Assembly: GCA_012519205.1 (NCBI GenBank)
Contig: JAAYQR010000028.1
Coordinates: forward strand, 4,411 to 68,410
DNA: 64,000 nt
Direction of reading: 5' to 3'
From: Candidatus Epulonipiscium sp.
Lineage (GTDB): Bacteria; Bacillota; Clostridia; Lachnospirales; Defluviitaleaceae
Shown here: positions 5,889 through 38,560 of the stretch, piece by piece
Layout: the number at the start of each line of letters is the position of its first letter
Position numbering within the stretch: the stretch's first letter is position 1
Program-made: the position numbers and the translations under genes
Notes under the pieces: generated by a model
The model's database searches: none
Told to the model about the DNA's origin: nothing
What the model saw: the letters and a program-made list of their open reading frames with translations, nothing else

Positions 5889-5957
5889 AGATATATCACC
5901 TCAGTTTTATAATGCCCCATTTTGGGAAATTTAGAATATAATTATGCTATAAATTAT

Positions 5958-5985
5958 AAAAAAAAGACAAGCATAGATGCCTGCC
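5958..5985 (-). terminator. Rho-independent terminator downstream of the oxidoreductase gene
   Basis: Minus-strand RNA GGCAGGCAU-CU-AUGCUUGUC forms a stem (with G-U pairs) followed by U8. Confidence 0.6.
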
Positions 5986-6028
5986 CTACAAACTTTGAAC
6001 CTTTTTAATGGTTGGGATTTGTTGTTTA

Positions 6029-7003
6029 TTAGATTATACCGATTTGTTTTCTGATGGTATCTAGAGTTTGTTGAATTTCCAAGGATTCCTTAAGGGGCAT
6101 AATATCACTTTCTAACTTACCTTCCTTAAGGCATCTGATAACTTCTTCTATTTCATAATTATATCCGTTGCCTTCCATGGGCATATGGATTGTTTCTTGA
6201 TCCTTATTGTGTACTTGGATAAAAGCTTTTTCAGCTCTATACCAACCATGGGGGATATGTATATACCCCTTATCACCTATAATAAATATATTTTTGGGGG
6301 TTTCTGTCATTATTGCGCAGCTTAAAAGTGCCATTTCCCCATTTTCGTATCCAAAAATCATGGATGATTGCTCATCTACCCCCGTATGACATATATCTGA
6401 TATGACTTTTATCTCTTTGGGTTGCCTATTATATATCATGGATACAAAAGAAATAGGGTATACCCCTACATCCATTATTGCCCCCCCTGCTAGATTTTTA
6501 TCAAAACGGATATCATCATATCCCGTGCTGGACTTAAATCCAAAATCTCCTTTTATCATTTTAACTTTACCAATGATATCTTCATTGAGTATTTCCCTTA
6601 TCCTTCTAATCAGTGGAAAAAACCTTGTCCACATGGCTTCCATCAGAAATACATTATTTTCTTTGGCTATGCTAATCATTTCTTCTGCATCTTTTTTGCT
6701 CCCTGCAAAGGGTTTTTCGCAGATTACTGCTTTTTTATTTTTGAGGCACAATATTGCATGGTCTTTATGTAGTCCATTAGGAGTCGAAATATAAACGACA
6801 TCAATTTCTTCGTCTTTAGCCAATGCCTCATAATTATCATATCTTTTTTTAATTCCAAAGATATCTCCAAATTCATTAGACTTGGTTATATTTCTTGATG
6901 CGATGCCGATAAGCTCAGCTTCTTTTGCATATTTTATGCCTTCTGCAAACTTCTTGGCAATTCTTCCTGCTCCTATAATTCCGAATTTGATTTTTTTGTA
7001 CAT
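6029..7003 (-). CDS. Gfo/Idh/MocA family NAD(P)-dependent oxidoreductase
   Basis: N-terminal Rossmann motif KFGIIGAGRIAKKF and EKP motif (CEKPFA). Start moved to ATG 7003 (MYKKIKFG), which has GGGAGG 7 nt upstream. Confidence 0.8.
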   Translation of the reverse strand: MYKKIKFGIIGAGRIAKKFAEGIKYAKEAELIGIASRNITKSNEFGDIFGIKKRYDNYEALAKDEEIDVVYISTPNGLHKDHAILCLKNKKAVICEKPFAGSKKDAEEMISIAKENNVFLMEAMWTRFFPLIRRIREILNEDIIGKVKMIKGDFGFKSSTGYDDIRFDKNLAGGAIMDVGVYPISFVSMIYNRQPKEIKVISDICHTGVDEQSSMIFGYENGEMALLSCAIMTETPKNIFIIGDKGYIHIPHGWYRAEKAFIQVHNKDQETIHMPMEGNGYNYEIEEVIRCLKEGKLESDIMPLKESLEIQQTLDTIRKQIGII

Positions 7004-7034
7004 ATATTTGCCTCCCGTCATATTTATGAGGATA

Positions 7035-7141: not shown

Positions 7142-8305
7142 TTACATGGAATCATGTCGATATCTGTGAATCCATCTTTTTACTAATTCTAGCAAAGAGC
7201 CTTGATAATCTTTTTGTTTACCTTGTTCTTTTTGTATACGGGCTTGTTCGAGTTTTGCTCCTTCATATTCATCGTTAATTTTAAGTGCTTCTTGGATTGC
7301 TCTAGATGCATCTTCTAGTTTTTTCTTTTTTCTATATAGTCTTGCTAATCTGACCCAAGCTAAAATATAATTCTTATTTATTTCTATACTTTTTTGGGCA
7401 TAATCTATTGCCAATTCTTCTTTGTTCCAGCTTTCATATAGATTCGAATATTCCAACCAATACTCTTCTTTCCTAAGCTTAGAAGGGATTTGTTCTAGAT
7501 AGTCTTCTGCTAGTTCGTATTGCCTTTTACCTATATATAGCCTTGATAATCTTATATAACTATCATAATCATCACCTTTTTTAATAGACCTTTTATAAGA
7601 CTCCACTGCCTCATTTTCACTGCCTTGATTGTTATACAGTTCTCCGTAGTAAAACCATATTAGTTTAGAATCCTCCATAGCTGCTGCTTCATTAAGATAT
7701 TCTGCTGCTTTTTCATAATCTGTTTTAAGTATATAGAGTTCTGTTAGATTTAAAAGTATAGACAAATTATTAGATTCTTTTTCATTTGCTTTGGTAAGAA
7801 AATAGGCAGCATCATCATACCATCCTAAGTGCATACAAGCAATTCCCATATTATTATAAACCTTGGAGTTTTCATCAAAGACTATGGCTTTTTTATACCA
7901 CTTTATTGCTTCCTCTGGCTTTTTTAAGGACATAAAATAATCGGCTTTTTCCTTACACTTTTCCCACTCTGCTTTATTTTCCCATTTGAAAATTTCTTTT
8001 CTTAGAGTATCTAATTCAGATTCATAAAAATAATCAATAAGATCTAGAAACCCAATATACTGTTCTGTTATGGATTGCTGCCCATCTTTTATCCTTTTTA
8101 TCTGTCCACTTATATGAGATAAACCTAATTCCACTCTTACCCAGTCTTCTAGTTTTCCCATTAAAAAGTCATCAATAGACTGCTTCCAATAATGGTAGCA
8201 GTGATAATACAATTCTTCTATGGAATATACCTTAATTTTAGTCATATAAAAATAGTATGGTCTCTCCACTGTTTCAGGAGAGACGCTAAGTATTAATGAG
8301 GACAT
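7142..8305 (-). CDS. TPR-repeat protein, last gene of the multi-Hsp70 operon
   Basis: About 7 degenerate 34-aa TPR units, e.g. AIKWYKKAIVFDENSKVYNNMGIACMHLGWYDDA, AVESYKRSIKKGDDYDSYIRLSRLY and AIDYAQKSIEINKNYILAWVRLARLY. Preferred start is ATG 8305 (GAGGTG upstream). The track start GTG 8314 lies 3 nt after the upstream stop. Confidence 0.8.
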   Translation of the reverse strand: MSSLILSVSPETVERPYYFYMTKIKVYSIEELYYHCYHYWKQSIDDFLMGKLEDWVRVELGLSHISGQIKRIKDGQQSITEQYIGFLDLIDYFYESELDTLRKEIFKWENKAEWEKCKEKADYFMSLKKPEEAIKWYKKAIVFDENSKVYNNMGIACMHLGWYDDAAYFLTKANEKESNNLSILLNLTELYILKTDYEKAAEYLNEAAAMEDSKLIWFYYGELYNNQGSENEAVESYKRSIKKGDDYDSYIRLSRLYIGKRQYELAEDYLEQIPSKLRKEEYWLEYSNLYESWNKEELAIDYAQKSIEINKNYILAWVRLARLYRKKKKLEDASRAIQEALKINDEYEGAKLEQARIQKEQGKQKDYQGSLLELVKRWIHRYRHDSM

Positions 8306-8317
8306 CTTATTCACCTC

Positions 8318-10396
8318 TTATAATCGTACCAATTCTGCAATGTCCATTGCTATATTGTCTAAGATATCTGTAAACTTATCTTGTAAATCATAATATTTTC
8401 CATTAGGCTTTGTTAAAGGATCATAGCTCTCTATGCTTAATTTATCCTTTCTTGCTACAACATAAGTTGTTATACTACTTTCCCTTAGCATAGCACAAAT
8501 CTCAGGAACATATTTCCCATCTTCCGTAGGTACATGGGGTGGGGCATCAGTTATAAGTATAAATATGTTTTTACCACTTTTGTCCACTTTAGAAGTTTTC
8601 AAAAGTTCTATACCTGTACCTACCGCTTCCAAAGAAGATTCGGGTATATCCCCTCCATAGGTTCTTGGAATATTTTTAACTTGTCTTTGGAATTTTTCTA
8701 CTTCATTTGTGAAGTTATAGACACTGGGGTTTTCTTTTTCTCCTAAATCACCAAAACCTATAAGGCCCAATTGGAAACCTATACCTTTTCGACTTAGTAT
8801 ATTTGAAAATTCTATGGCCCTATCCTTAACTCCATTAATATAGGTGTCCATGCTCCCTGTAGTATCTATTATAAATACAATATTCATATTTTCGGCAGAA
8901 GTAGTCGAAAGCTCTCTTTTAGGTGGCGGCATAACCTTGGTCCTATCAAATTCTGCTCTTTCAGTTTTTCCTGTAGATAAATCTTTTACAAATACTTCGA
9001 AAAGATTATTTTCATCTATGGCATAGGTAATTTCTAGCTGGGTAGTACCCTTAAGCCCCGTAAGCATTACACTACCTATATATTTTCTTTCTTCTTCATT
9101 ATCTTGCTCCCATTGATAAACATCAACCTGTACCGAAGAAGCCCCGGACATACTGGCAAAGTTTCTATCAGATATCTTTGCCGGAATAGAACTGCCCATG
9201 GGGATAATGGGAATTAATTCTTTTTTCATGGTATCTACATTTATAACCGCTTCCGTACCAAAAATTTGGCGGGTGATTTGCCCCACCTTTACATTGCTGT
9301 TAGGAAGGTGGATGAGATAATTATAAATCGATGCCCCCATGGCTACACTCTTTGCAGGGTCCGTAGCACGATAGGGTTCCTTAATGTATCCCCCAACCAT
9401 TCTTTTTACCATAGGAATTAGGGTTGAACCCCCAACTAAGATTACCTTTGATATTTCGTCGGGTTCCCTTCCTGCCCTTTTTAGGGCCTCTTGTATAATT
9501 TCACGGCTTCTGTCTATATATTTTCTAATTAAGGCTTCAAATTCTTCCCTTGTTAACTCCATTACTAGATTTTTGGGGACCCCTTCATGAATTATAAGGG
9601 GATGAATCCTTATGGCTACTTTGTTAGTTCCTGAAAGTTTCTTCTTGGCTTGTTCCGCTTCTTGCTTTAGTTTTTGAACCACTCTTTTTCTTTCTACAGT
9701 TTCTAACTTGTCTAGATTAATCCCTGTCTCCTTTAAAAAATTCTCTTTCATCAGGCGTATAAGTTCACTGTCAAAATCATCTCCCCCAAGATTCATATCT
9801 CCGACATCAGATAATTCTTGAAATATTTCCTCCCCATTTTTATCTTGGGATACCTTTAGGACACAAGCATCAAAGGTTCCCCCACCTAAGTCATATACTA
9901 AAAGGGTTTGGGCATACCCCTGCCTATACCCATATTCTATTGCCGCTGCTAGGGGTTCTGATAAAAGATGAACATTCTTAAATCCTGCCATCTCCCCTGC
10001 TTTTTTTGTTGCAAATATCTGTCTGTCGTTAAAATATGCTGGGTGGGTTATGACTACTTCATCAAAATTTTCTCCACTTTGATTTTCTGCTGCTTTTTTT
10101 AACTTTTTTAGTATTTCGGCACTTATTTCTTCCGGGAGTTTTTCTAAGGCTCCTACTTTGATTTTTTCCGATTGTCCCATGAATCTCTTGACAGAAATCA
10201 CGGTGCTTTCTGGATATATGATTGCCCCAGCCTTGGCCTCACTGCCTACTATAATCCCTTCTTCTCCATAGCACACAACAGAGGGAAGGATTTCATCCAC
10301 TCCATCTATCTTTACAATTTCCATTTCATCTGTTTTATCTTTATATATGATTGCTGCCGAATTGGTGGTTCCTAAATCTATTCCTAAATAACTCAT
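8318..10396 (-). CDS. Hsp70-family ATPase (NBD + SBD-beta, no lid) fused to a C-terminal von Willebrand A domain
   Basis: Hsp70 motifs IDLGTTNSAAI, VYDLGGGTFDACV and LVGGSTLIPMV. SBD-beta-like LTGLKGTTQLEITYAIDENNLFEVFVKDLSTGK. The last 189 aa (8321-8887) begin MNIVFIIDTTGSMD and contain YGGDIPESSLEA and ILITDAPPH, which is a vWA fold with a MIDAS-like DxTxS. Confidence 0.85.
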   Translation of the reverse strand: MSYLGIDLGTTNSAAIIYKDKTDEMEIVKIDGVDEILPSVVCYGEEGIIVGSEAKAGAIIYPESTVISVKRFMGQSEKIKVGALEKLPEEISAEILKKLKKAAENQSGENFDEVVITHPAYFNDRQIFATKKAGEMAGFKNVHLLSEPLAAAIEYGYRQGYAQTLLVYDLGGGTFDACVLKVSQDKNGEEIFQELSDVGDMNLGGDDFDSELIRLMKENFLKETGINLDKLETVERKRVVQKLKQEAEQAKKKLSGTNKVAIRIHPLIIHEGVPKNLVMELTREEFEALIRKYIDRSREIIQEALKRAGREPDEISKVILVGGSTLIPMVKRMVGGYIKEPYRATDPAKSVAMGASIYNYLIHLPNSNVKVGQITRQIFGTEAVINVDTMKKELIPIIPMGSSIPAKISDRNFASMSGASSVQVDVYQWEQDNEEERKYIGSVMLTGLKGTTQLEITYAIDENNLFEVFVKDLSTGKTERAEFDRTKVMPPPKRELSTTSAENMNIVFIIDTTGSMDTYINGVKDRAIEFSNILSRKGIGFQLGLIGFGDLGEKENPSVYNFTNEVEKFQRQVKNIPRTYGGDIPESSLEAVGTGIELLKTSKVDKSGKNIFILITDAPPHVPTEDGKYVPEICAMLRESSITTYVVARKDKLSIESYDPLTKPNGKYYDLQDKFTDILDNIAMDIAELVRL

Positions 10397-12033
10397 TCTT
10401 CTCCCTCCAGTACTGTCTTATTAAATCGGCTTGGATCAAAGGGCTGCTTAAATCCGCTAGGGGGATACTCTTCTCCGAATCCTAAATCTTCAACTGCACC
10501 TTTTACAAGCCCCCCTTCTTCCTCTACTGCAAGGGTTACCTGCAACTTAGTCTTACCTGATGGCCTCTTTGGCAATCCCTTTATGCCTACATCCCCAATT
10601 AACTTACAATTTTCTATGGTATCTTCTTTATCTATTCTTTCTAGAATTCTAAGTTCTAGAGTTGTCATATCTTCAAGAGTTTTCCCTGATAGAGTAAATA
10701 TATGGCTTTTTTTTGCCAATGAATAGGGGGTCCCCCTTCTTATCATGGTAAAAAAAGATTTCCTTGTGCCATGATCTACTTCGAGTCCAATATCATGGGG
10801 AACTGTAACTTCAAATTCCACTTCTACCTTTTCCGCTTCTAAATCAGGGTGGGTTAACACCCCCATTTTCATAGCTGCATAATAAGTAGCACCCAAGGAG
10901 ATATCTAGAGCTGGTCTTTCTGATGTGTATATTTTATTTTCTTCATTAAATATACCTATTAGCATATCTTTTATCCAAGGCATAGTAGATGAACCCCCTT
11001 CAAGAAGTACCCTATCTATGTCGCTTGGAAGCAGTGCCCCAGTATAAGCTTCTCTTAAAGCTTTTAATACAAGTTTTCTCGTTTTTTCTATAAAGTCATG
11101 GATTAAATTTTCAAATTGCTCCCTTGTTATTTGTTCTACAAATGGCGGAATACAAAAGGTAAAAGGAATTCTAAAGCTTTTGACCCCGGATAATCTTTCT
11201 TTTGTTTCCCTTGCTCTCATTATAAGTTCTGCTTGATTTTCTGGTGTCATAGCATCCTTATTTTGTCCTGTTTTATTTTCTATATATAAATAACATTGTT
11301 TTAGGAGGACTTCGTCGATATTATCTCCCCCGTGGCGTGCTTCCCCTCCTTCGCTTATTACCTGCAGCTTGATGCGACAATCATCTTTTTCGACTACATG
11401 GAATAGAGTAATATCTAAAGTCCCTCCCCCAAAATCAAAAACCATGATTTTTTCATCCTTGGATAATTGATGTCTGAAATTATATGCTAGGGCCGCTGCC
11501 TTTGGTTCTTCTATAAGGCAAATCAACTTATCTTTCAATCCCGCTAATTCACAAGCTCTCATCGTAGCCTTTTTTGCCCCATCATCAAAATCATAAGGTA
11601 CAGAAACTACGCACCCTGCAATCTCTGCATTTGGGTTCATGTTTTTACAATGACTTATCAATTCTTTTAAAATCATTGCCGATATCTCTTCCGGAAGATA
11701 TTCTTTATCTTCTATTTGTATTTTTTCGTTGGTTCCCATTTTTCTTTTGATTGATCTTATGGTGGTTTCCGGGTAAATTTTCATAGACCTATAGGCTTCT
11801 TCTCCTATAACCCATTCCTCTTCGTCCCCTTCTTCTCCCCTATATTGAGCTACTGAAGGAAGAGGAATCTTACCAAATCCATTGCTGATGTCTATGGGCT
11901 CGGGTTTTTTGTTATTATTATCCCAGTAACTTATTACTGAGTTGGTTGTCCCTAGGTCTATTCCTAGGATATACCATTCTTCGGGGAGATCTTTTTGTTC
12001 TTCGATTTGTTTCTTGTATTCTTCCCAGTTCAT
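10393..12033 (-). CDS. Hsp70-family ATPase paralog, lidless (546 aa)
   Basis: Motifs IDLGTTNSVIS, VFDFGGGTLDITLF and LLEGGSSTMPWI. SBD-beta-like IKGLPKRPSGKTKLQVTLAVEEEGGLVKGAVEDLGFGEEYP. 4-nt ATGA overlap with the downstream gene. Confidence 0.85.
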   Translation of the reverse strand: MNWEEYKKQIEEQKDLPEEWYILGIDLGTTNSVISYWDNNNKKPEPIDISNGFGKIPLPSVAQYRGEEGDEEEWVIGEEAYRSMKIYPETTIRSIKRKMGTNEKIQIEDKEYLPEEISAMILKELISHCKNMNPNAEIAGCVVSVPYDFDDGAKKATMRACELAGLKDKLICLIEEPKAAALAYNFRHQLSKDEKIMVFDFGGGTLDITLFHVVEKDDCRIKLQVISEGGEARHGGDNIDEVLLKQCYLYIENKTGQNKDAMTPENQAELIMRARETKERLSGVKSFRIPFTFCIPPFVEQITREQFENLIHDFIEKTRKLVLKALREAYTGALLPSDIDRVLLEGGSSTMPWIKDMLIGIFNEENKIYTSERPALDISLGATYYAAMKMGVLTHPDLEAEKVEVEFEVTVPHDIGLEVDHGTRKSFFTMIRRGTPYSLAKKSHIFTLSGKTLEDMTTLELRILERIDKEDTIENCKLIGDVGIKGLPKRPSGKTKLQVTLAVEEEGGLVKGAVEDLGFGEEYPPSGFKQPFDPSRFNKTVLEGEE

Positions 12034-12154
12034 TATTTCACTCCTTTTACATGGATAGATAGTTATGGGATTCCATGCGGATTTTGTGGTTTATAATGTT
12101 AAATTAGTTGAGGTGATTATGCAAGAATGGTGGTGGCTATATTAGGTATTTATG

Positions 12155-13726
12155 TTATAGTTGGATAATTGCAGTTTGGGTATAATCTGTGGCGGGAAAC
12201 ATTTCTCCGAATCCACAGTCCTTTATGATTACCTCTATTTGGTCATATTGTCTAAATCCTAAGGTAAATTTTAGCCTTAGGGTTCTTGAAGGTCTATCGG
12301 GTAAGCCTTCAAGGTTTATGGTATGTAGGGGTGTTATCTCCCCCCTATCATTTCTTTTGTATACAGGTATACATAATGTGTTTTCCGTTTCCCCATCCAA
12401 TATAAATATTTTTGGTTTGGGTTTTTGCCACCAAAACGTATTTTTTTCTATTAGGGGTATGAAACAAGGTGCCTTTCTAAAGGCTCCATTAATCCCTATA
12501 TCCCAGGTTAACCTATGGTAATCTGTTAATTTAATCATTGTCTCAGGAATGATTCCCAAGTAAGAAGCGGCACCTATACATGCCCCTAGTGCTACCGTCC
12601 CTTCTGCTTCTTTTGGGTATATGATGGAACTTCCTAGAAATTCGTTTTCTAAAAGTTCCTTCATCCAGCTCATTTCAAAGCCGCCCCCAACGGCTATTAT
12701 TTTGTGTATTTCATTTTTATCGATTACTCCGTTGATTGTTTTATTTAACAATTTAGAAATAAATTCTTTAATACTTTGTGAAAATGGCTCTATGAGCCTA
12801 TCCATATCCTCAATAGTAACGGACTTTTGGAAGGCAGGATATACAAAGTTAAAATATAGTTTTGTTGTTTTTTTCTTATAATAGTTTTGGAATAATAACC
12901 CTTTATTTTGATATGCAAAGACCTCAATTTGGTGGAGAATTTCATCACTAATCCTATGTTGAGTTAGCCCTGTTTCTTCACAATAAAAATTAACAAATAA
13001 CTTTTTTAATAGTTTATCAAGTTTTCTTCCTCCCAAGGTTGAATCAAATAAATAAGATAATGTCTCCGCATTAACACTCCCTTCATTGGAAGGATTAACC
13101 CTAATAAGTCCTCCCCGTATCTGTTCTCCCCCATAATCGATAAATAAAACCTTTTCTTCACTGTTTAGAGAACGCTCAAAATACAAATATCTTAAAATAC
13201 ATTCTCTATAACCCATTAGATTTATTAAGGCCTTACTAAGCCCTGCAATTGAAAAAGCTCTTTCTAATTCTTCCCTAGCACTTTCCGAAAAATAATCCGG
13301 TACTGCGGCTATAACCCCTACTATATCTGCATTGGGGTTTAGGTTCTTACACATATCTATTATTTCTTTAATGTATCTACTAAGGAGGTTTGGTATATTC
13401 ATGGGTTTACCACTAATATTTATAAGTTCCTTAGTTCCTAATTTTGATAAGATATTATGAATTGTGATATCATCAAAATATCCCCTATTAAGTAGGGCAT
13501 ATTCACCATAGACCCATTCCCTATTTTCTGGAATGTATTGCATAACCGTTGGTATGGAGGGATTCCCATAACCACCACTCATATCGATTAATTCTGCCTG
13601 CTTCCTATTAACATTCCAAATGGCTATTTTGGTTGCTTTGCTTCCTATATCTATTCCTAGTATGAATTTTGTTTCGTCATTAAAGTCCATTGATGAAATT
13701 TGTTTTTTGAATATTTTCCAGCTCAT
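12155..13726 (-). CDS. Divergent Hsp70-like paralog with degenerate nucleotide-binding motifs (523 aa)
   Basis: Collinear with its neighbours, but phosphate-1 is IDIGSKATKIA, phosphate-2 is FIDYGGEQIRGG and the adenosine motif is AVGGGFEMSWM. The C-terminus LEGLPDRPSRTLRLKFTLGFRQYDQIEVIIKDCGFGEMFP parallels the 546-aa paralog. Confidence 0.7.
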   Translation of the reverse strand: MSWKIFKKQISSMDFNDETKFILGIDIGSKATKIAIWNVNRKQAELIDMSGGYGNPSIPTVMQYIPENREWVYGEYALLNRGYFDDITIHNILSKLGTKELINISGKPMNIPNLLSRYIKEIIDMCKNLNPNADIVGVIAAVPDYFSESAREELERAFSIAGLSKALINLMGYRECILRYLYFERSLNSEEKVLFIDYGGEQIRGGLIRVNPSNEGSVNAETLSYLFDSTLGGRKLDKLLKKLFVNFYCEETGLTQHRISDEILHQIEVFAYQNKGLLFQNYYKKKTTKLYFNFVYPAFQKSVTIEDMDRLIEPFSQSIKEFISKLLNKTINGVIDKNEIHKIIAVGGGFEMSWMKELLENEFLGSSIIYPKEAEGTVALGACIGAASYLGIIPETMIKLTDYHRLTWDIGINGAFRKAPCFIPLIEKNTFWWQKPKPKIFILDGETENTLCIPVYKRNDRGEITPLHTINLEGLPDRPSRTLRLKFTLGFRQYDQIEVIIKDCGFGEMFPATDYTQTAIIQL

Positions 13727-13742
13727 AGCTTCTCATCCTCAC

Positions 13743-15665
13743 CTATTTGCCTGCAACTACATTGGCTTTTAATACGATTTGATTGTTATATTTATATCCC
13801 CTGTTCATGGTCTTGATGATTTCACCCTTTTCAAATCCTTCTTTTACTTCAGCCATCAGAACTTCATGTTCTTTCCCATTAAATTTTTCATGGGTCTTAG
13901 GGTTTATAAATTCAACTTTAAATTCCTCTAGCAGGTTTTCTAGTTTTAGGGTAAGGGCATCAATATTTTCTACATAAGAAGCTACTACCTCTTCATTTTC
14001 ATTTCTAAGTCTAGATACCGAATAGTTTATTATTTCTTCATAGGTGCTCATTTCAAAAAACAGATGCTCCCTAAGATACTTTATCATTTTTTTATTAGCT
14101 TCATTTTTAATTTTTTCTACTTTTCTTCCTAGCCTTTCCATAAGGGCATCATAGCCCTCTTTGATTTCATTATCTAAAAATGCTCCTTTTTGTGTTAGAA
14201 CATCCTCTATAGGGGTATCATACTTGCTAATAAATTTATTGTATATTTCTAAGTCGATTTTTTCGTATTCTTTTTCTATCACAATAGGATCCAACTCTTT
14301 TTTTACATATTCCTCAAATTGATTGATTGTACTCTGGTATAACTCTAGGCTTTCCCTTAGGCTTTCAATTTTTATAGAAATTGTTTCAGAGATTCCTTCT
14401 ATTATAGGGGTATACTCAGCTTCTTCCGGTATATCCTTGTATAATTCCTGATTTTTATTAAACTCTAGAAAAAAATCTACTATTCTTTCTCCGGCTTCTT
14501 TGTTTATATATAAATTTTCGACTATTTCCTTTAGTAGAGCCCCTGGGTTGAACTTTTCTATATATATCTTTAAAAGTTCCTCCTTCAAGGAGCCCCATTT
14601 TTCGGTAAAGTCATTAAAATTATCAATAAACTCTAAGGGCTCTTCGGTTTTGAGCCTAAGCTTCTTTCTTACGGTGATGTCATTAATATACAATCTCATT
14701 CCTTGAAACTTCAGGTAGTTTTCAAATCCCTCTTTATCAAGTAATATTATTTTGTTAGGCTCTTTTTCTGCCTCTTTAAAGAAATCCTCTAACTCTTCGA
14801 TTTCTTTTCCTAAATGCTGATAGGCCTCCCTTATGGTATGTAGAATTTCTTGGATTATTTGCTGTTCACTACTTTCGTACTGCTCTATTTTCATTTCTTC
14901 TTCCAAGGCATTCACTTGAATCTTAATAATTGCCTCCACATTATCTTTTTCTTGTTTTATGGATTCATAGTAAAAATTGGCAGCCTTTCTTAAATGAAAA
15001 TCGTTAAGCCTTTTTATACCCTTCTCTGACCTTTTTGTATAACATTTATAAAGAGGTTCACTCATTTCTTCAATCAATAAGAGATATAATTCTCTTATGA
15101 ATTCTAGTTGTGAATCTTCACCTTTATAGATGTCCATTAATCTATTTCTTGAATTTATTAAAGTTGGGCCTATTTTATAATTAAGCCATAGCTTTTCCAG
15201 TTCATCTAACTGATTTAAGATATTTATCTTTTGTTCTGTAACAAATTTATCCTTTTCTATTTTAATTGGATTGATATTAGCCTTAGGGTCGGCTATTCCC
15301 TGATTTGCCAGCTGGCTTTCTTTAAATTGCTTAAGCTGCGACAAAAGTACGGTGCATATTCCAATCAATATTTCTTTTGCTTTTCCCGTTTTTATGTTTT
15401 CCTCATTATCATAAAATAAGTAGATTGTCCTTTGATAATGATGCATTAAGTGATCAAAGTATTCAAATATCCGCTCATCATATTTGGATAATTTATTTTC
15501 CTCAGTAAGATGATTAAGTATTCTAAGCATTACCTTCATTTTGATATGAAAAAAACATCCCTTTATACTTTGTTCAGTAAATTCATCGAAAGCCTGAAGG
15601 GTTTTTCTCCAGGCTTCGATTAATTCCTTTGACTTTAGCAAAATAGGGGGATACTCCTTAAACAT
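13743..15665 (-). CDS. 640-aa helical / coiled-coil protein ending in a GrpE-like nucleotide-exchange domain
   Basis: The C-terminal 60 aa, KVEFINPKTHEKFNGKEHEVLMAEVKEGFEKGEIIKTMNRGYKYNNQIVLKANVVAGK, align by eye with the GrpE beta domain (F-D/N-P-x-x-H-x-A ... QKGY-x-L-x-x-R-x-x-R-x-A-x-V-x-V). The preceding ~570 aa are E/K-rich helical sequence. Confidence 0.7.
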   Translation of the reverse strand: MFKEYPPILLKSKELIEAWRKTLQAFDEFTEQSIKGCFFHIKMKVMLRILNHLTEENKLSKYDERIFEYFDHLMHHYQRTIYLFYDNEENIKTGKAKEILIGICTVLLSQLKQFKESQLANQGIADPKANINPIKIEKDKFVTEQKINILNQLDELEKLWLNYKIGPTLINSRNRLMDIYKGEDSQLEFIRELYLLLIEEMSEPLYKCYTKRSEKGIKRLNDFHLRKAANFYYESIKQEKDNVEAIIKIQVNALEEEMKIEQYESSEQQIIQEILHTIREAYQHLGKEIEELEDFFKEAEKEPNKIILLDKEGFENYLKFQGMRLYINDITVRKKLRLKTEEPLEFIDNFNDFTEKWGSLKEELLKIYIEKFNPGALLKEIVENLYINKEAGERIVDFFLEFNKNQELYKDIPEEAEYTPIIEGISETISIKIESLRESLELYQSTINQFEEYVKKELDPIVIEKEYEKIDLEIYNKFISKYDTPIEDVLTQKGAFLDNEIKEGYDALMERLGRKVEKIKNEANKKMIKYLREHLFFEMSTYEEIINYSVSRLRNENEEVVASYVENIDALTLKLENLLEEFKVEFINPKTHEKFNGKEHEVLMAEVKEGFEKGEIIKTMNRGYKYNNQIVLKANVVAGK

Positions 15666-15692
15666 ATAAATCCTCCTCTTACTATCATGACT

Positions 15693-17378
15693 TTAGTATA
15701 AGTCGTCTACAGATAGCTCCGTCTCTACTCCACTAGTACTCATGCTTTTAGCCATTACCTTAAGCATATTGTCCTGTCCTATATGAAAGATTACTTTTAC
15801 CTTTTCTTCTCCCTTTGCCTTAGACGGGATACCCCTTAGGCTCGTTCCTGCAAGGCGTTTCATACCATCTTCCATTACATAGGAAGCTTTCTTTTCTTCA
15901 CTAGAGGGTCTCATGTTTTCATAAACAACTATTGCCATACTGGTTACATTGTCAAAATTAGTAACCAAAAGTTCCGCCGCCTCTATAGTAAGACCCTCCT
16001 CAGGAATATCTACACCACTTTTTACAATCTCCATAAATCTTCTACCTGATATTTCGAGCCCTAAAGGGTGAATGGTCTTTTCTTGAACAATAGGTCCCTT
16101 TACCGTAGGCATCATAATCATATTGCAGTAATGGGCTGCCCCTTGAGAAATACTTAGGGCGGGACTAATTTTTGATTTAAAGGGTTCTTTTCCAAACTTT
16201 TCTTTTATTTTCTCCCTTATTCTAGGAATCGCAGAGGAACCTCCCACTAAGAATGTTTCATCAATATCTCTAGCTTCTAAGGAGGCAGCTCTTAGACATT
16301 CATCAATACACTCAATACTTCTTTCTATTAAGTCTTCTACCGATTTCCCTTCTAGTTTACTAAATACTTCATCGGAATCCCCTAACTGGTTGATTCTTTT
16401 ATGGTTTAAAAAGGCATCCTTTGTAATTTCCATATTGATATTAATAATTTTAGGTTCCTGGATAAATGGAGCTAAAACAACTTTGGTGGATTTAGCCGAT
16501 GAAAGTCTTTCCTTAGCTTGGTTAGCTACTTGGGCAAGGCGAACTAAAGCTGTTGTTTTTTGCCGTTTTGATGCACCATCATCAGCGTTTAAATCAAATA
16601 GATTAATTTCCTCATTAGTCATTTTTTTAAATTCTTCATAAACCATATCTATTATTATTTTATCTACGTCATTTCCACCTAGATAATTGTCACCAAAGGT
16701 ACTTAGTATAGATATAGAGGGTTCATCGGTATCTGTCATCCTTATATCCAGAACACAAGCATCAAAGGTTCCGCCCCCAAAATCATAAACCAATACCTTT
16801 TTATTTTTTCTTTCGTTGACTGCATATGAAATTGCTGCAGCTGCCGGTTCTAATCTAAGGTATATGTTATCTTCATCAAAACCTGCTAGTTTTGCGGCTT
16901 CTTTTGTCATTTTCTTTTGTTTATCCGTTGAATTGGCAGGAACGGTTATTACGCAGCCTGAGAATTCTCCTGCTATATTTAGTTCCTCTTGAGCATATTC
17001 ATCAGCTTTTTGCTTAAGATACCCTAATATCTCCCCAGTCACCTGCTCGGGAGTAAATTCATACTCTTTATCATCTACCACTATTTTTACTTTTTCTTCA
17101 CTTCCTAGAAGGCGCTTTATCGATAAAACTGTACTTTGCGGATAAATTATAGCTGCTTCTTTTGCCTGTATCCCAAAAATCCTAGATAGTTTATCAGGAT
17201 CATCGGGATCCGTTTCGAATTGTACCGCCGTTGGGAAAACATTGCTTCCATCAATGGGTATGGTTTGTACTTGTCCTTCTTTAAAGTCATACACACTTAC
17301 TACTGAGTTTGTTGTTCCAAAGTCGATTCCTAAAAACAATCCTCTTTCTACATCTAATCCTAGTGTTCCCACAAGCAA
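15693..17378 (-). CDS. Hsp70-family ATPase paralog, lidless (about 560 aa)
   Basis: Motifs IDFGTTNSVVS, VYDFGGGTFDACVL and LVGGSSAIPRI. SBD-beta-like LRGIPSKAKGEEKVKVIFHIGQDNMLKVMAKS. The track start is TTG 17378. GTG 17372 has better spacing to the AGGAGG at 17387-17381. Confidence 0.85.
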   Translation of the reverse strand: MLVGTLGLDVERGLFLGIDFGTTNSVVSVYDFKEGQVQTIPIDGSNVFPTAVQFETDPDDPDKLSRIFGIQAKEAAIIYPQSTVLSIKRLLGSEEKVKIVVDDKEYEFTPEQVTGEILGYLKQKADEYAQEELNIAGEFSGCVITVPANSTDKQKKMTKEAAKLAGFDEDNIYLRLEPAAAAISYAVNERKNKKVLVYDFGGGTFDACVLDIRMTDTDEPSISILSTFGDNYLGGNDVDKIIIDMVYEEFKKMTNEEINLFDLNADDGASKRQKTTALVRLAQVANQAKERLSSAKSTKVVLAPFIQEPKIININMEITKDAFLNHKRINQLGDSDEVFSKLEGKSVEDLIERSIECIDECLRAASLEARDIDETFLVGGSSAIPRIREKIKEKFGKEPFKSKISPALSISQGAAHYCNMIMMPTVKGPIVQEKTIHPLGLEISGRRFMEIVKSGVDIPEEGLTIEAAELLVTNFDNVTSMAIVVYENMRPSSEEKKASYVMEDGMKRLAGTSLRGIPSKAKGEEKVKVIFHIGQDNMLKVMAKSMSTSGVETELSVDDLY

Positions 17379-17387
17379 TTCCTCCTT

Positions 17388-20090
17388 TTATAATAACCAC
17401 CCTACATTATTCTTTTGGTTCTCGCAAATCATTTCATCAAGTATTGACTCAACCTTATCAAATTCTAAATCATGGCTATAAATACTCGCATTGTTTAATT
17501 TTTCGTAAACCTCTTTTGGATTGCCCCTTAGTTTTTTGCAGTTATGGTTATACATTTTGACTTCCGTAAGGATAATATTGTCTTCCTTATCGATTTCTTC
17601 AATATAGTATTCCATACTTTCATTAAAAAACAAAGAAACACAAATTCCATATAAGCCAAAAGCTATAGGATACATTTTCTTTTTATTCAAGGGAAAACCT
17701 TGAATTTTATAACAAAAATAGACTTCCTTCCCCTTCTTAGTATAATGGGTAAAGGGGGTATTCTGTTCTACATACGAAAAATACGGAAATTTGTCTTGTT
17801 TTTCTTTAATAATTGGAAAAATAAATTGATTTCTTTTCATCCATTTAAAAATGGGTAGTATTGTTTCATTTTTTATTTCTATATTCATTGGGATATTTGC
17901 GTAAATATGAATAAGAGATGATCCTAATAGCATATCTTGAGTAAGTTCAAAGTTTTTTTCTAGTTTTTCTAGGGTTTTTGGTGTAACCATCTTCCCATTT
18001 ATCAAAATTTCATAGCTGCAATATAGGATAAAGTCATTTGCCATGGTGGGTTCTTTTTCATATATGTTTTGAAAAGCTTCTTCTAGTTCTTCATTCAAAT
18101 CTCTAATCCAAATCCCCTTTTGCAATATTTTTTTATCTATATCGTAGGTTGGCTTTTCTAGGAGTTTTATCATATGCCTTAAGGCATACCATTCTCCCAT
18201 ACTTCCTTTATAATTCTTAAGAACATAATCTAAAATAACTTCATCGTATTTTCTTTCTAAAATAAGATTATATGCAATCCCTGCAATATATGAATTCTCT
18301 ATGTTTAACTCTATTCCCTTTTTTACTAGTTTAAACTTTGTATCATCCCCTAATGAATCCGAGCCTTGCGCCCAAAATATTGCCTTAGTTACATCTCCCC
18401 CTTCTATTAACGCATTTATTCCGTATTCTATCTGATACGGGTATAAATCCTGTAAATCTAGAGGTTTAAAGTATGGGAATGCCTTTTCTTGTTCTTTATT
18501 AAAACTATAAAGTGTTCCTAAGGAAGCTGATATTTTTTTCCTGAAGGTATCGGACAATGCGCTATTTTCTAAGCATTCCCCCATTATCCTTACAGCCTTT
18601 ATCAAAGATAGATTTCCCATGTTTTTTGGCATTTCATTTATAAAGTATTTAGTAAGTCTAATTAGAAGGCTTGCACTCCTATAGCCTTCATCATAATACT
18701 TTAATAATAAATCTACGGGCACATCTTTAACTAATTTATTCACCCGTATTAAGTCTTTAGGATAAATGCCCTTCTGCCTCTGACCTATACAAAGAATAGT
18801 CAGCTCATCTTTTTCATGGGCAACTGCTTCTATATAAAGTATCTTTTTATCGACTATATATGTAGCCGTTGTTTCTTTTTCGCTTTCGATAACCCATATA
18901 TATTTAATTAAGGGAGATTCTACATAGACTTCATATGTAAAAAGCTGCTCAAATATTGCTTTTTTAAATAAGTTATCGTTTTCGTTTTTCTCTAGTAATC
19001 GCATATATATATCAATATAGTATTTTCCTTGTTTGTTTGCTCTTAAGGCATTTTCCCCAAAGGCAAGAATCTTATTGTAATGAATTTGAAAAAGCATCCT
19101 ATGCTGCTCATCCTTGCATAAGATTGAGTATATATAGGCAGTTAGAGATTCATTAAATTGCTCCTTAAGCATTGCTGATTGTAAAATTGATGTAGGAATT
19201 TTTACCATATCTAGCTTATGAGCTGTTTCTATATATGCCAAATGAACTCCCTTAACATAAAATTTTAAATCTATTATTGCCTCAAATACCTTAAAGGCTT
19301 CCTTATCCCTCTTATTTTCTTTTATATAGGTTGCACATAATAGTACCAAGGCCTCGCTAATACCCCATCTATTATACATTTTTTCTATATAGTCCTTGGG
19401 AATATTGAGGCTTTCTTGATTTTGATTTGCCCAGCTTATAAATAACTTTGCATTTTCCTTATCCAAAACCTCATATTTTATTGCCCATATAAAAACAGCC
19501 CTGACCATATCCTTCATATTATAAAAATAAGTGAAATCAAGACAAAGCAACCGGTATACCTCTGAATATAAAAACGGGCTCCTTAAACCATTTAGAAAAG
19601 CCTTGTCATAATAATAGGCTTGGGTTTTTTCTTCATTAAAAAATTCTCTTTCTATCATGGCTTTTATAAAAAATAATATTCCGCTATTTTCTTCTTCTAA
19701 GCAATCATCAAATATCTTAAGAGACCTTTGTACAAACATATGTCTACCTTTATAATAATCTATCAATGCCTTAAAATAATATAGGATTGCCAAAATGGTT
19801 TTGTCGGTATCATGGTAATATTTTTTGTATTTGAGTAAAGCCTTAAGGGACTTATATGCCTCATCATATCTTTCTAGTTTTATTTTTAACCAAATAAGAC
19901 TTAAAGCAATCCTTATCTCTATTGGATTTTGTCTATTAAGTTCAGATACCAATAGTATCGAATCGTTATATTTCCCCATAAGTCCATAGCTTACTGCATT
20001 AAATAGTCTTACACGATAGGCGATACGATTTTGATTGGATTTGTCTTCCCACTTATCCATTAATGTCTGCATATATCCATTCATTTTCAT
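17388..20090 (-). CDS. 900-aa protein of unknown function, with an alpha-solenoid / TPR-like N-terminal region and a mixed C-terminal region
   Basis: Long uninterrupted ORF whose ATG overlaps the upstream stop (ATGA at 20087-20090). No signal peptide, TM segment or catalytic motif that I recognise. Helical repeat character, e.g. YDEAYKSLKALLKYKKYYHDTDKTILAILYYFKALIDYYKG. Confidence 0.55.
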   Translation of the reverse strand: MKMNGYMQTLMDKWEDKSNQNRIAYRVRLFNAVSYGLMGKYNDSILLVSELNRQNPIEIRIALSLIWLKIKLERYDEAYKSLKALLKYKKYYHDTDKTILAILYYFKALIDYYKGRHMFVQRSLKIFDDCLEEENSGILFFIKAMIEREFFNEEKTQAYYYDKAFLNGLRSPFLYSEVYRLLCLDFTYFYNMKDMVRAVFIWAIKYEVLDKENAKLFISWANQNQESLNIPKDYIEKMYNRWGISEALVLLCATYIKENKRDKEAFKVFEAIIDLKFYVKGVHLAYIETAHKLDMVKIPTSILQSAMLKEQFNESLTAYIYSILCKDEQHRMLFQIHYNKILAFGENALRANKQGKYYIDIYMRLLEKNENDNLFKKAIFEQLFTYEVYVESPLIKYIWVIESEKETTATYIVDKKILYIEAVAHEKDELTILCIGQRQKGIYPKDLIRVNKLVKDVPVDLLLKYYDEGYRSASLLIRLTKYFINEMPKNMGNLSLIKAVRIMGECLENSALSDTFRKKISASLGTLYSFNKEQEKAFPYFKPLDLQDLYPYQIEYGINALIEGGDVTKAIFWAQGSDSLGDDTKFKLVKKGIELNIENSYIAGIAYNLILERKYDEVILDYVLKNYKGSMGEWYALRHMIKLLEKPTYDIDKKILQKGIWIRDLNEELEEAFQNIYEKEPTMANDFILYCSYEILINGKMVTPKTLEKLEKNFELTQDMLLGSSLIHIYANIPMNIEIKNETILPIFKWMKRNQFIFPIIKEKQDKFPYFSYVEQNTPFTHYTKKGKEVYFCYKIQGFPLNKKKMYPIAFGLYGICVSLFFNESMEYYIEEIDKEDNIILTEVKMYNHNCKKLRGNPKEVYEKLNNASIYSHDLEFDKVESILDEMICENQKNNVGWLL

Positions 20091-21310
20091 CCCCCTAAAC
20101 CAATCCTATCAACTTTCAATACCAAACTATCTTTTATTCTATATTTTTTATTGCTAACCATAAGCTCGATTATCGTTTCGCAATAAGGTTCCTTGTTCAT
20201 CCCCCATTTATCCCAACCCGTTAAGCGAACTCTAAATGGAATTTCTGCCTTTTTTGATATAAGATATTTTTTAGCCTCAAAACCAATCCAGGAATCCTTA
20301 GGAAAGATATGAACCATGGCATCTTTCCCGGTTTCGTTTTCAATTATTAGCACTCCCACATCATCTTGTTTATAGGATTTTTTAGAAAGACTTATATTAA
20401 AAACTTGCTTTTGTGTTACTATAACCTTATATGTGCTTTCCATATCCTCATGATGAATCTTGATATATCCAAAGTTAATTTTGTTTTTAATTTTATTGGG
20501 TATAATTTCATACTCAATAATAAGTTTATTTTCTTTAAAATCCTGGGCTGTAAATATGGACTTAGATAGTTTTATCCAAGACTCATTGGTTTCTAGTTCT
20601 ATATCAATCAAACCCCATCCTTTTTTGTGCAGTATTATCCCTTTTTTGTTTGGCCTCTTATCCTTAGGAGATAGTTCTACTTTCCTTATATCGTCCTCTA
20701 TCCATATGGTTGGGGGTTGCTTATTGTTTGTTAATCTTAAAAAATATTCCAATGCCCAGTCCTTTTGTGAAATTATAATAATTTGGTTATATATTTTTAC
20801 ATATTCTAAGTTCTGACTTTGATAAAGCCAAGACAAAAATCCCGGTGAACAGAATATTTCATTTGCCCGTTCCCAATTATTTTTTGCAAACTCTGTGAAT
20901 TCCTCTAGGCTGGATACGCTATTGGTTTCATCAATAATTAACATTGGTTTTTTTATTCCGATATGGTTAGAAATCTCCTGTTCTCCTCCATTTGATTCTA
21001 TTATCCAAGTATCTTCATATGTATTACCCCAAAACATATTTTTACTATCAATACGATATATGATAACCTGCACATTATCCTTCCATTCTGCAGAATTAAA
21101 ATTTTCAGGTGTAAACTCTGCATATCCTTTTTTAGAAAAAACTTTACCCTTTAAGGGAGTTCCCCCTTTGTTTTCTACTCTAAATGCCCCTGTATATATG
21201 GATTGTGATGCAATTGTTATTCTTAGATTATTAATAGGTACAAAAAGTATCGGAGGGGTTTTACTATAATCTTCCCTATTAACTTGATAAGAAGTATTTT
21301 CCAATGTCAT
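20087..21310 (-). CDS. 407-aa protein of unknown function, first gene of the multi-Hsp70 operon, beta-rich (Ig-like/beta-sandwich-looking repeats)
   Basis: Uninterrupted ORF with no signal peptide or TM segment. Alternating beta-strand-like patterns, e.g. LRITIASQSIYTGAFRVENKGGTPLKGKVFSK and VGVLIIENETGKDAMVHIFPK. GGAGG abuts ATG 21310, so TTG 21304 may be the real start. Confidence 0.5.
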   Translation of the reverse strand: MTLENTSYQVNREDYSKTPPILFVPINNLRITIASQSIYTGAFRVENKGGTPLKGKVFSKKGYAEFTPENFNSAEWKDNVQVIIYRIDSKNMFWGNTYEDTWIIESNGGEQEISNHIGIKKPMLIIDETNSVSSLEEFTEFAKNNWERANEIFCSPGFLSWLYQSQNLEYVKIYNQIIIISQKDWALEYFLRLTNNKQPPTIWIEDDIRKVELSPKDKRPNKKGIILHKKGWGLIDIELETNESWIKLSKSIFTAQDFKENKLIIEYEIIPNKIKNKINFGYIKIHHEDMESTYKVIVTQKQVFNISLSKKSYKQDDVGVLIIENETGKDAMVHIFPKDSWIGFEAKKYLISKKAEIPFRVRLTGWDKWGMNKEPYCETIIELMVSNKKYRIKDSLVLKVDRIGLGG

Positions 21311-21338: not shown

Positions 21339-21368
21339 ATTATATATCAATCTACTTTAATTTTCCAA
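21339..21368 (-). promoter_or_regulatory. Candidate sigma-A promoter of the multi-Hsp70 operon
   Basis: Minus strand reads TTGGAA (21368-21363), 18-nt spacer, TATAAT (21344-21339), about 30 nt upstream of the first gene. The context is AT-rich, so specificity is low. Confidence 0.3.
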
Positions 21369-21527
21369 TATATTATGAATACATTAATCTTTACTGATAT
21401 CTTTTACTTATTCATAAGGATTAATTGACTTCTAGTTGCTTATGTCCTCTTTTGGTGTATAATATATAAAAATCCACTCATAAATGTAATTTTTTAATTT
21501 ATGCCTAAGGGCAGAACGGAGGACAAC

Positions 21528-22628: not shown

Positions 22629-22655
22629 AAGGCTGCCTAATAGGTAGCCTTTTTT
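22627..22655. terminator. Hairpin terminator between the convergent cobD-like and DUF815 genes
   Basis: AAAAGGCTGCC-TAATA-GGTAGCCTTTTTT. Confidence 0.65.
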
Positions 22656-22661
22656 GCTTTC

Positions 22662-38554: not shown

Positions 38555-38560
38555 TTAAAA

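Follow-up and report, generated by a model that had tools for sequence, protein, structure and literature searches.

We analyzed a 64,000-nucleotide stretch of Candidatus Epulonipiscium sp. (positions 4,411 to 68,410 of contig JAAYQR010000028.1, assembly GCA_012519205.1; hereafter the window), in which eight consecutive minus-strand genes, named g1-g8 in transcription order (21310→7142), form an operon built around four Hsp70 paralogs. The operon is a conserved, self-contained unit of three active Hsp70s, a dead Hsp70, a GrpE domain, a von Willebrand factor A (vWA) domain of the metal ion-dependent adhesion site (MIDAS) type and non-catalytic scaffold proteins, and the block contains no J domain, no residues for contacting one, no Hsp70 lid and no heat-shock control. 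These results support the original prediction of a specialized Hsp70 machine with a private exchange factor and adaptors, distinct from the housekeeping hrcA-grpE-dnaK-dnaJ operon. We favor the reading, held at roughly even chances, that this chromosomally inherited, J-independent machine serves the assembly or remodeling of a large complex in a cell-biological role rather than phage defense; with hosts that are spore formers, that role is possibly developmental. Hsp70s are generally believed to need J-proteins, which bring them clients and activate their ATPase, and the operon would be a natural experiment in alternative Hsp70 control.

The list of open reading frames (ORFs) and the sequence gave eight consecutive minus-strand ORFs of 407, 900, 561, 640, 523, 546, 692 and 390 amino acids (aa). 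Four-base ATGA overlaps join g1 to g2 (20087-20090) and g6 to g7 (10393-10396), and the remaining intergenic gaps are, in operon order, 9, 27, 16, 121 and 3 nucleotides (nt); the coordinates of this arrangement, two overlaps and short gaps with one of 121 nt, had been predicted earlier and were confirmed. A promoter-like site of the sigma-A type, TTGGAA-18-TATAAT (21339..21368, minus strand), identified by consensus match only, lies ~30 nt 5' of the strong ribosome-binding site and the ATG of g1. A similar TTGGA(A/C)…TATAAT arrangement precedes the orthologous operons in L001 and L009. No CIRCE element was found anywhere in the 64 kb at up to 3 mismatches, and no hrcA-like gene was found among the operon neighbors at 328-7021 and 21501-26762, the remaining window being only partly scanned. 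Rfam detected no RNA element in the operon region. We also considered whether the 121 nt between g5 and g6 hide an internal promoter or an RNA element, and rejected this, as the gap holds no convincing hexamer pair and no Rfam hit; its length is not conserved either (20-129 nt among orthologues).

The catalytic residues of the four paralogs were read by alignment to E. coli DnaK numbering, with a reference sequence that we supplied ourselves. D8, K70, E171, D194, T199 and D201 are kept in every orthologue examined by g3 (15693..17378; Pfam HSP70 E=1e-71; 6/6 orthologues), g6 (10393..12033, 546 aa; HSP70 E=2e-60 plus a weak DUF5716_C match) and g7 (8318..10396, 692 aa; HSP70 E=3e-93 plus VWA_4/VWA), all on the minus strand. 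The orthologues of g3 start two codons downstream of its listed TTG start, which places its length at ~559-561 aa. In contrast to these three, g5 (12155..13726, minus strand, 523 aa; DUF5716_C E=1e-28, HSP70 E=5e-18) is without K70, E171, T199 and D201 in every orthologue, and its motifs read IDIGSKAT, DYGGEQIR and GGGFEMS. Given that these four residues are lost, g5 is predicted to be a dead ATPase, i.e., a pseudo-Hsp70, although its length still covers the whole NBD+SBDβ fold. Thus, of the four ORFs that had been credited with Hsp70 motifs, g3, g6 and g7 are intact, while g5 has lost its catalytic residues. DUF5716_C scored 100.5 bits against g5 and 38.4 bits against g6 (cut-off 34.7), and the nearest active relative of g5 is g6 (28% identity, E=8e-66), which marks g6, as far as sequence can tell, as the sister paralog of g5. 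The g6 and g7 genes are adjacent in most loci.

The surface of DnaK formed by R167 and N170 reads the HPD loop of the J domain. Both residues are replaced in all four paralogs and in all their orthologues, and the VLLLD interdomain linker is absent from all four, with P(I/V)VQE in g3, EKVEV in g6 and VKVGQ in g7 at its place. No Pfam DnaJ match was obtained in the block, and no HPD tripeptide occurs in g1, g2, g4 or g8. The HPD tripeptide at g6 residue 395, the only one in the block, was rejected as a J motif, since it sits in the linker between the nucleotide-binding domain (NBD) and the substrate-binding domain (SBD). These scans, together with that for CIRCE, bear out the earlier claim that the block has neither a J domain nor CIRCE; a J-protein may still be encoded in another part of the genome. 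All four paralogs have an alignable SBDβ and end within 10-25 residues of DnaK position ~500. Because these ends fall directly after SBDβ, the four paralogs are lidless, as had been predicted. Pfam HSP70 coverage stops at profile positions 413-501 of 599, with ends at 493-501 for g3 and g7; g3 spans positions 2-493.

These features bear on whether the operon is simply a duplicated general chaperone set, with extra DnaK/GrpE copies for stress tolerance in thermophilic anaerobes. As in the canonical DnaK-DnaJ-GrpE system, the NBDs of g3, g6 and g7 have the catalytic residues, three paralogs combine the full catalytic set with DnaK-type SBDβ features, and a GrpE-fold domain is encoded in the same operon; several hosts, inferred from the names of isolates and metagenome-assembled genomes (MAGs), came from thermophilic digesters. 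The operon differs from that system, however, in that its Hsp70s have no helical lid, R167/N170 or VLLLD linker, in that the block has no J-protein and no CIRCE/HrcA control, and in that there are four paralogs, of which one is a dead ATPase. Moreover, the GrpE domain is carried on a 500-aa arm, the genes are linked across loci to scaffold (DUF5717), DUF5716, vWA and tetratricopeptide repeat (TPR) proteins, and the Hsp70s score far under all the NCBIfam DnaK/HscA cut-offs (e.g., 346 vs. 648 bits). The same system is also found in mesophilic termite-gut communities. On balance, we regard a general chaperone duplicate as very improbable.

Pfam confirmed the predicted C-terminal vWA domain of the 692-aa g7. 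The Hsp70 part of g7 aligns with residues 4-467 of DnaK (2V7Y), and the vWA domain (residues ~505-692; VWA_4 and VWA above gathering score) follows directly, at the position of the lid. The motifs DxTGSM … GGDxPES … ILITDAPPH are conserved in this domain, which thereby keeps MIDAS-type motifs and may bind metal.

The original prediction stated that the first two genes matched no family. Both match Pfam DUF5717. The 407-aa g1 (20087..21310, minus strand; DUF5717_N E=2e-43) covers DUF5717_N positions 8-292 with 148.7 bits, and the 900-aa g2 (17388..20090, minus strand) covers DUF5717_N positions 329-869 and the C-terminal DUF5717 model with 118.2 and 86.5 bits (cut-off 25 in each case). By this division of the profile, g1 and g2 are two halves of one DUF5717 protein, with g1 as its N-terminal third. 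A single fused protein of 1299-1329 aa is found in Defluviitalea saccharophila and several metagenome relatives, while others have the same split site. AlphaFold2 (AF2) models of g1 and g2, built with family alignments, reached a mean predicted local distance difference test (pLDDT) score of 78.9 and 84.5, respectively. In the model of g1, an Ig-like/ASH-type β-sandwich (28-120) with a conserved NGGxE loop is followed by a helical bundle (135-193), a second β-sandwich (201-300) and, at lower confidence, a third. The model of g2 opens with a TPR-like α-solenoid (20-383) and, past a small β-sandwich (385-452), resumes as another solenoid (459-776), which leads into a further β-sandwich (777-848) and a helical tail. 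The best Foldseek matches of g1 were ASH/Ig-repeat proteins of the ciliary central apparatus and titin, and those of g2 were generic TPR scaffolds only (Ski3, Ctr9, IFT-A, Naa15 and APC/C). A functional assignment from these matches was rejected, as they identify generic TPR-solenoid and Ig/ASH-repeat folds only. Neither the motifs of g2 nor the Foldseek searches with both models revealed a catalytic fold or motif in DUF5717, and no sequence match to g2 was found in the PDB. The PDB matches of DUF5717 and of the g4 arm, by sequence or profile, were discarded as TPR noise plus a weak GrpE match.

The 640-aa g4 (13743..15665, minus strand) ends, as predicted, in a GrpE domain: Pfam GrpE matches residues 507-637, which comprise the end of the four-helix bundle and the β-domain, with 46.4 bits vs. 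a cut-off of 25.8, and the g4 family profile weakly matches residues 126-204 of Geobacillus kaustophilus GrpE (4ANI). Because the NCBIfam GrpE equivalog scores of g4 fall far below the cut-off, this is a divergent GrpE domain and not a GrpE orthologue. We predict that g4 serves as a dedicated nucleotide-exchange factor. Its N-terminal ~500 aa gave no significant Pfam match (best E 0.08) and no convincing PDB match, and no relatives of this arm were detectable outside the family; g4 homologues of equal length form 32 clusters. The last gene, g8 (7142..8314, minus strand; 390 aa in the window and 387 aa in D. saccharophila), had been described as all TPR. Its TPR repeats (Pfam TPR families) are confined to residues ~120-360, and residues ~1-110 form a distinct, non-TPR domain with no Pfam match. 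This N-terminal domain is common to a 270-275-aa partner protein of the Lachnospiraceae, and BLAST aligned g8 with the 275-aa protein of locus L003 over residues 4-186 (E=3e-11). None of the eight proteins has a sufficiently hydrophobic stretch for a membrane helix, and all eight appear soluble. Likewise, no Walker A motif (P-loop) and, in Pfam and NCBIfam, no nuclease, protease, TIR, pore or GTPase domain was found in any of them.

In the window, g2 and g4 are 100% identical to proteins of an 'Epulopiscium sp.' MAG at NCBI. The complete gene order is also seen in a Candidatus Epulonipiscium MAG (L001), in D. saccharophila (L002) and in three Logan/NCBI contigs (L004, L009 and L010), and homologues occur in D. 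saccharophila, D. phaphyphila and D. raffinosedens, i.e., all three named Defluviitalea species. It should be noted that a scan of genome contigs with g2 alone returned one locus, as single-protein patterns reach close relatives only. When metagenomes were scanned with an alignment of the vWA part, 80 loci were obtained. Most came from termite-gut samples, and their GC content was 25-70% (25-60% among the loci whose g7 is at least 70% identical, and 41-60% in termite-gut contigs). The genes g3-g7 are contiguous in 15/22 metagenome loci with at least 7.5 kb upstream of g7, while 6/22 have g6/g7 only and 1/22 has g5-g8; g8 lies directly downstream of g7 in 18/47 loci with enough flank. Co-occurrence of the genes in Defluviitalea, Epulopiscium-labeled MAGs and many metagenome contigs thus agrees with the earlier view of the block as a unit. 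The neighbors in the exceptional loci are unrelated (metK, asd, BlaR1, S41 peptidases and serpin). In the termite-gut contigs L068 (1-15183) and L022 (1-10579), g6 and g7 are parted by ~7 kb; the insert in L068 carries S41 peptidases, a BNR protein and a serpin, all unrelated genes, and g8 is a further 3.4 kb away. The operon genes are therefore dispersed in some lineages, though their proteins remain ~73% identical. An extra 435-aa first gene in L009 was examined as a relocated g8 and rejected, since the two have no similarity.

In the Lachnospiraceae, a trio of genes encodes DUF5717 (1157-1194 aa), DUF5716 (407-414 aa) and a short TPR protein (270-275 aa). Their DUF5716 protein is orthologous to g5, with the BLAST alignment to that of L003 spanning both halves, and the 270-275-aa protein corresponds to the N-terminal domain plus the first TPR of g8. 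From these correspondences, the trio is predicted to be a reduced form of the operon. It adjoins tig-clpP-clpX-lon-engB, gap-pgk-tpi, gltX or pheST. At L003 (9804-10976) and L005 (13654-14826), the trio is followed by a gene that is missing from the other trio loci; it encodes a 390-aa protein that is strongly hydrophobic around residue 200 and has weak LapA and holin-like matches. A divergent class I/II aminotransferase gene lies upstream in the window, L001, L002, L003 and L005, and is absent from L006-L010. Clustering of all the flanking ORFs revealed no recurrent neighbor family other than this gene in the five related loci. Given its absence from L006-L010, the aminotransferase was rejected as a functional partner and treated as inherited synteny. 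The aminotransferase synteny shared from Defluviitalea to the Lachnospiraceae, combined with presence in three species, argues for vertical inheritance of the operon.

The window itself has a type I-C cas3 (HD plus helicase), cas5d and csd1/cas8c at 328-5293 (minus strand), 1.85 kb from the end of the operon. The remaining cas genes, and a CRISPR array if there is one, would fall beyond the left end of the window. Between the cas genes and the Hsp70 operon are genes for MsrB and a GFO/IDH/MocA oxidoreductase, and the operon is flanked by the aminotransferase and oxidoreductase genes. The cas proximity had been read as a hint of defense, and this hint lost its force, as cas genes adjoin the operon only in this window; other operon loci sit among housekeeping or metabolic genes with no recurrent defense neighbors, and the cas proximity was rejected as evidence of a defense island. 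A search of PADLOC-DB 2.0 gave no significant match to a known or candidate anti-phage system. The candidate PDC-M61B drew weak matches from g6 and g7 (E=4e-10 and 2e-7 over ~190 residues), which are generic Hsp70 similarity, and the remaining PADLOC matches are TPR noise. No operon match was obtained in the plasmids and phages searched, and IMG/VR returned generic vWA similarity only (23-36%). The cell-biological role is favored because of the vertical inheritance, genus-wide presence and housekeeping contexts of the operon, together with its sigma-A-type promoter, the lack of effectors and the absence from mobile elements. Defense and large-assembly biogenesis had been presented as equally open; the evidence leans to assembly, with a conflict role possible.

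A narrower alternative is that the machine is a sporulation- or germination-specific assembly chaperone of spore-forming Lachnospirales, which would build or remodel a large structure of the spore, e.g., its coat or the cortex machinery, or, in relatives of Epulopiscium, structures of the offspring cells. Spore formation has been described for Defluviitalea species. The window contains a gene (32176-35691, minus strand) for a 1171-aa protein with a CspB prodomain and several subtilase (S8) stretches, which resembles the fused germination protease of the CspBA type known from Clostridioides difficile; such a fusion indicates that the host is a Clostridia-type spore former. This protease, the confinement of the system to Clostridia-like genomes and the suitability of non-enzymatic scaffold proteins for the assembly of a large structure are all consistent with a sporulation role. 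The motif upstream of g1 is, however, sigma-A-like and not SigE-, SigK-, SigF- or SigG-like, and known spo or ger genes are linked to the operon at no examined locus, so a role restricted to sporulation or germination is improbable.

For the cell-biological role that we prefer, we propose that the machine would act on one specific cytoplasmic target and not on unfolded proteins in general. The non-enzymatic set kept in the Lachnospiraceae consists of the DUF5717 scaffold, the g5-type DUF5716 and the g8-type TPR protein, and these three would form a platform, the part of the machine retained in that family, on which the active g3, g6 and g7 would dock. The DUF5717 scaffold, which the AF2 models depict as Ig/ASH-type β-sandwiches plus about 750 residues of TPR-like solenoid, would position the client or stimulate the ATPases in place of J-domain stimulation. 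Such a replacement agrees with the lack of DnaK R167/N170 and the hydrophobic linker, and also with a relative (L092) in which a J-like domain is joined to the first DUF5717 β-sandwich. The exchange factor g4 would reset the Hsp70s through nucleotide exchange. The conserved acidic/aromatic C-terminal tails of g3 (…TELSVD(D/E)LY) and g6 (…FDPSRFNKTVLEG(EE)) may dock onto the TPR modules in the manner of EEVD-TPR binding. The vWA/MIDAS domain of g7 would tether the machine to an acidic residue of a partner, and ATP cycles would then assemble, disassemble or pull on this partner, as with MoxR-vWA pairs.

The components belong to known folds, and in kind the system is one of the specialized NTPase-plus-adaptor machines. 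In MoxR-type AAA+/vWA pairs (i.e., RavA-ViaA, CbbQ-CbbO, NorQ-NorD and BchI-BchD), an ATPase works with a MIDAS vWA adaptor for remodeling or insertion in one particular target complex. The operon shares with them an ATPase coupled to a vWA with MIDAS-type motifs (g7), but its ATPase is an Hsp70 of the actin-fold family and not an AAA+ ring, the vWA of g7 is fused in cis where it replaces the Hsp70 lid, and neither a MoxR gene nor an AAA+ protein is encoded in the operon. In RAC (Ssz1-Zuo1) with Ssb and in Hsp110-Hsp70 of eukaryotes, active Hsp70s have a stable structural partner in a catalytically impaired Hsp70 whose SBD is truncated, and several paralogs operate as one fixed team; the pseudo-Hsp70 g5 beside active paralogs, of which g6 is the nearest, is comparable. 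The homology is limited to the Hsp70 fold, however: RAC depends on the J-protein Zuo1 and the ribosome, while the operon has no J domain and provides DUF5717, TPR and vWA proteins as partners. Hsp70-like NBD/SBD units, some with degenerate ATPase motifs, also occur as CnuD or fused to McrB in CoCoNuT systems, and vWA proteins occur in extended Type III-A CoCoNuT operons (Bell et al., 2024, eLife, PMC11090510). The recruitment of Hsp70 NBD/SBD modules into specialized multi-gene systems is shared, but the McrBC GTPase/nuclease, HEPN, coiled-coil and CSD components of CoCoNuTs are all missing from this operon.

By gathering score, g1+g2 and g5 (weakly also g6) are members of the Pfam families DUF5717 and DUF5716, entries that carry no function and do not capture the link to active Hsp70s, GrpE and vWA. 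No profile search placed the block in a characterized pathway. Full-text literature searches returned no description of the operon or of Hsp70-vWA fusions and no paper addressing DUF5716/DUF5717, the sole occurrence of 'DUF5716' being in an unrelated paper. The earlier claim that the system is undescribed is consistent with these searches, although two of its components already carry Pfam DUF names. The operon would provide the first functional context for DUF5716 and DUF5717, which are common in human- and animal-gut Lachnospiraceae and which it links to wider multi-Hsp70/vWA operons in Peribacillus and unassigned metagenome contigs. A cultured host with a complete genome is available in D. 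saccharophila (chromosome CP121687), which makes the system accessible to direct tests.

Residues 381-692 of g7, used in an exhaustive search, identified about a dozen 50%-identity clusters of lidless Hsp70-vWA fusions of 688-746 aa with the same architecture; DxTGSM, GGDxPES and TDAPPH are conserved across 14 fusion cluster representatives, and the two named hosts are a Deinococcus MAG and Peribacillus kribbensis. These fusions, too, stand in multi-Hsp70 operons. That of L094 encodes Hsp70-vWA, Hsp70, GrpE, Hsp70 and a 639-aa protein without assignment, and that of L093 encodes Hsp70-vWA, a 152-aa protein, Hsp70, a 492-aa protein without assignment and Hsp70. The L092 operon encodes a rhomboid, Hsp70-vWA, GrpE, Hsp70 and a 769-aa protein (14454-16763) that combines a DnaJ-like domain without HPD, the first DUF5717_N β-sandwich, transmembrane segments and PEGA; the NGGxE loop is common to its β-sandwich and that of g1. 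In L092, the gene for the rhomboid protease runs into the beginning of that for Hsp70-vWA. The joining of a J-like domain with DUF5717 in this locus suggests that the β-sandwich holds the functional position of the client-delivery module of a J-protein. The large partners are not homologous between the operon variants, and homology of g4 or DUF5717 to the 639-aa partner of L094 was sought and rejected, none being found.

We tentatively propose, as a possibility on the doubtful side, that lidless Hsp70-vWA fusions mark an unrecognized, phylogenetically scattered class of J-independent Hsp70 machines, each combining an Hsp70-vWA with additional Hsp70 paralogs, in most cases a GrpE-like factor, and a large non-enzymatic partner particular to its lineage. 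In the Lachnospirales version, the DUF5717/DUF5716/TPR platform would form a stable cytoplasmic super-complex. If true, this would represent a new co-chaperone logic, in which scaffold- or MIDAS-directed client capture replaces J-protein delivery, and Clostridia of guts and digesters would have either a large cellular assembly or an immune module of the threshold type that is new.

The operon proteins evolve at very different rates. The median identity to the window proteins across loci is 73% for g3, 73% for g6 and 75% for g7 (range 70-89% for g3 orthologues; for g6, 70-88% in 18 tabulated loci and 54-89% over all 39), values that would be comparable to those of housekeeping DnaK, vs. 26% for g1, 23% for g2, 28% for g4, 37% for g5 and 34% for g8. 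Because the genes of one locus share their history, recent transfer cannot explain the conserved Hsp70 trio. As judged from these identities, the ATPases appear to be under housekeeping-grade constraint, and their partners to drift or diversify.

This contrast between 73-75% for the Hsp70s and 23-37% for the scaffold, adaptor and exchange-factor proteins also suits a system for conflict or against phages that pairs a constant NTPase switch with a variable sensor. In such a system, the fast-evolving DUF5717, g4 and g8 would sense an invader protein, and the Hsp70 trio with GrpE would set a threshold or drive a sequestering or dominant-negative complex through the vWA. The operon would then be a GTPase-less relative of the GAP1-N2-type DO-GTPase conflict systems, which include a theme with HSP70 and GrpE (Kaur, Burroughs, Iyer and Aravind, 2020, eLife, PMC7159879). 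In Firmicutes and Actinobacteria, operons of these systems encode HSP70 and GrpE together with another HSP70, which is truncated, and a protein in which β-sandwich repeats are fused to DnaJ/TPR, and vWA proteins occur in sister themes (PMC7159879). Like them, the operon has HSP70, GrpE and, in DUF5717, a β-sandwich/TPR protein, and the relative L092 has its J-like domain fused to the DUF5717_N β-sandwich. The DUF5717 sandwiches resemble ASH/Ig folds and might or might not be of the FNIII type. The operon differs in having no DO-GTPase (no Walker A and no GTPase Pfam match in the eight proteins) and no spare gene for GAP1, although g4 residues 1-500 could hold a cryptic GAP1 domain. It differs further in having no variable effector genes, the same composition recurring across loci, in being vertically inherited in housekeeping contexts, and in having three full Hsp70s with SBDβ plus a pseudo-Hsp70; the Hsp70-vWA fusion is not mentioned in PMC7159879.

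The distant Peribacillus kribbensis locus (L091; AUMQ01000016.1, 1-21285) is a 13-gene same-strand block with five Hsp70 paralogs, among them a PIN_4 nuclease fusion (Hsp70-PIN) and an Hsp70-vWA, interleaved with proteins of 262, 575 and 477 aa without assignment; next come genes for a WHH/colicin-DNase toxin, its SUKH immunity protein, three dynamin-like GTPases and an 821-aa TPR protein. The locus may itself belong to the DO-GTPase/HSP70 conflict systems or form a bridge towards them. The association of five Hsp70 paralogs with a nuclease toxin and its immunity protein weighs against the cell-biological reading, and other points do the same. The presence of scaffold, GrpE-arm and TPR proteins that are only 23-37% identical beside a constant ATPase core is a pattern typical of conflict systems too, and vWA and TPR modules are common in NTPase-centered conflict systems (PMC7159879). 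In six metagenome loci, g6/g7 stand alone with no other operon genes nearby, and strict operon linkage therefore does not hold everywhere. The trio of the Lachnospiraceae encodes no ATPase itself, and the function of the platform could therefore be unrelated to chaperoning. Finally, the Hsp70-scaffold, TPR-tail and vWA-target interactions of the proposed mechanism are all ones that we infer.

The weak PADLOC matches of g6 and g7 to PDC-M61B and the type I-C cas operon 1.85 kb away could be added in favor of conflict, but the former amount to generic Hsp70 similarity and the latter has no counterpart at any other locus. Also contrary to a conflict role are the absence of an effector domain, a GTPase or a GAP1-like extra gene from the operon, its presence in all three named Defluviitalea species with aminotransferase synteny reaching to the Lachnospiraceae, which speaks for vertical rather than patchy inheritance, its housekeeping neighborhoods without recurrent defense genes in the flanks, and its absence from the plasmids and phages searched. 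We therefore consider a conflict system rather unlikely, though the rate contrast, the Peribacillus locus and the resemblance to the GAP1-N2 systems keep it in play; if true, it would be an Hsp70-centered immune module without the GTPase that defines its closest described relatives.

Other genes of the window were also inspected. A DUF815-family AAA ATPase is encoded at 22662-23858 (minus strand), one divergent gene upstream of the operon, and a 398-aa ORF of L001 (5732-6928) occupies the matching place, as compared by position only. This ATPase was rejected as a partner of the operon, since it is absent in D. saccharophila and lies beyond the divergent gene, and its position is probably inherited synteny. 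A tetrahydrofolate (THF) riboswitch (24732-24840, minus strand; 68.9 bits) is directly upstream of an ECF-transporter S component (23944-24702, minus strand), and the two probably constitute a folate-regulated folate transporter. A cobalamin riboswitch (58193-58371, minus strand; 119 bits) lies upstream of the same-strand ORFs 57146-58090 and 56067-57119. A tRNA-Met gene (38561-38634, minus strand) is inside the listed 374-aa ORF at 37539-38663 (minus strand), and this ORF, or its 5' part, is therefore probably not a real gene. Homologues of SbcD and SbcC are encoded at 42260-43486 and 38749-42297, respectively.

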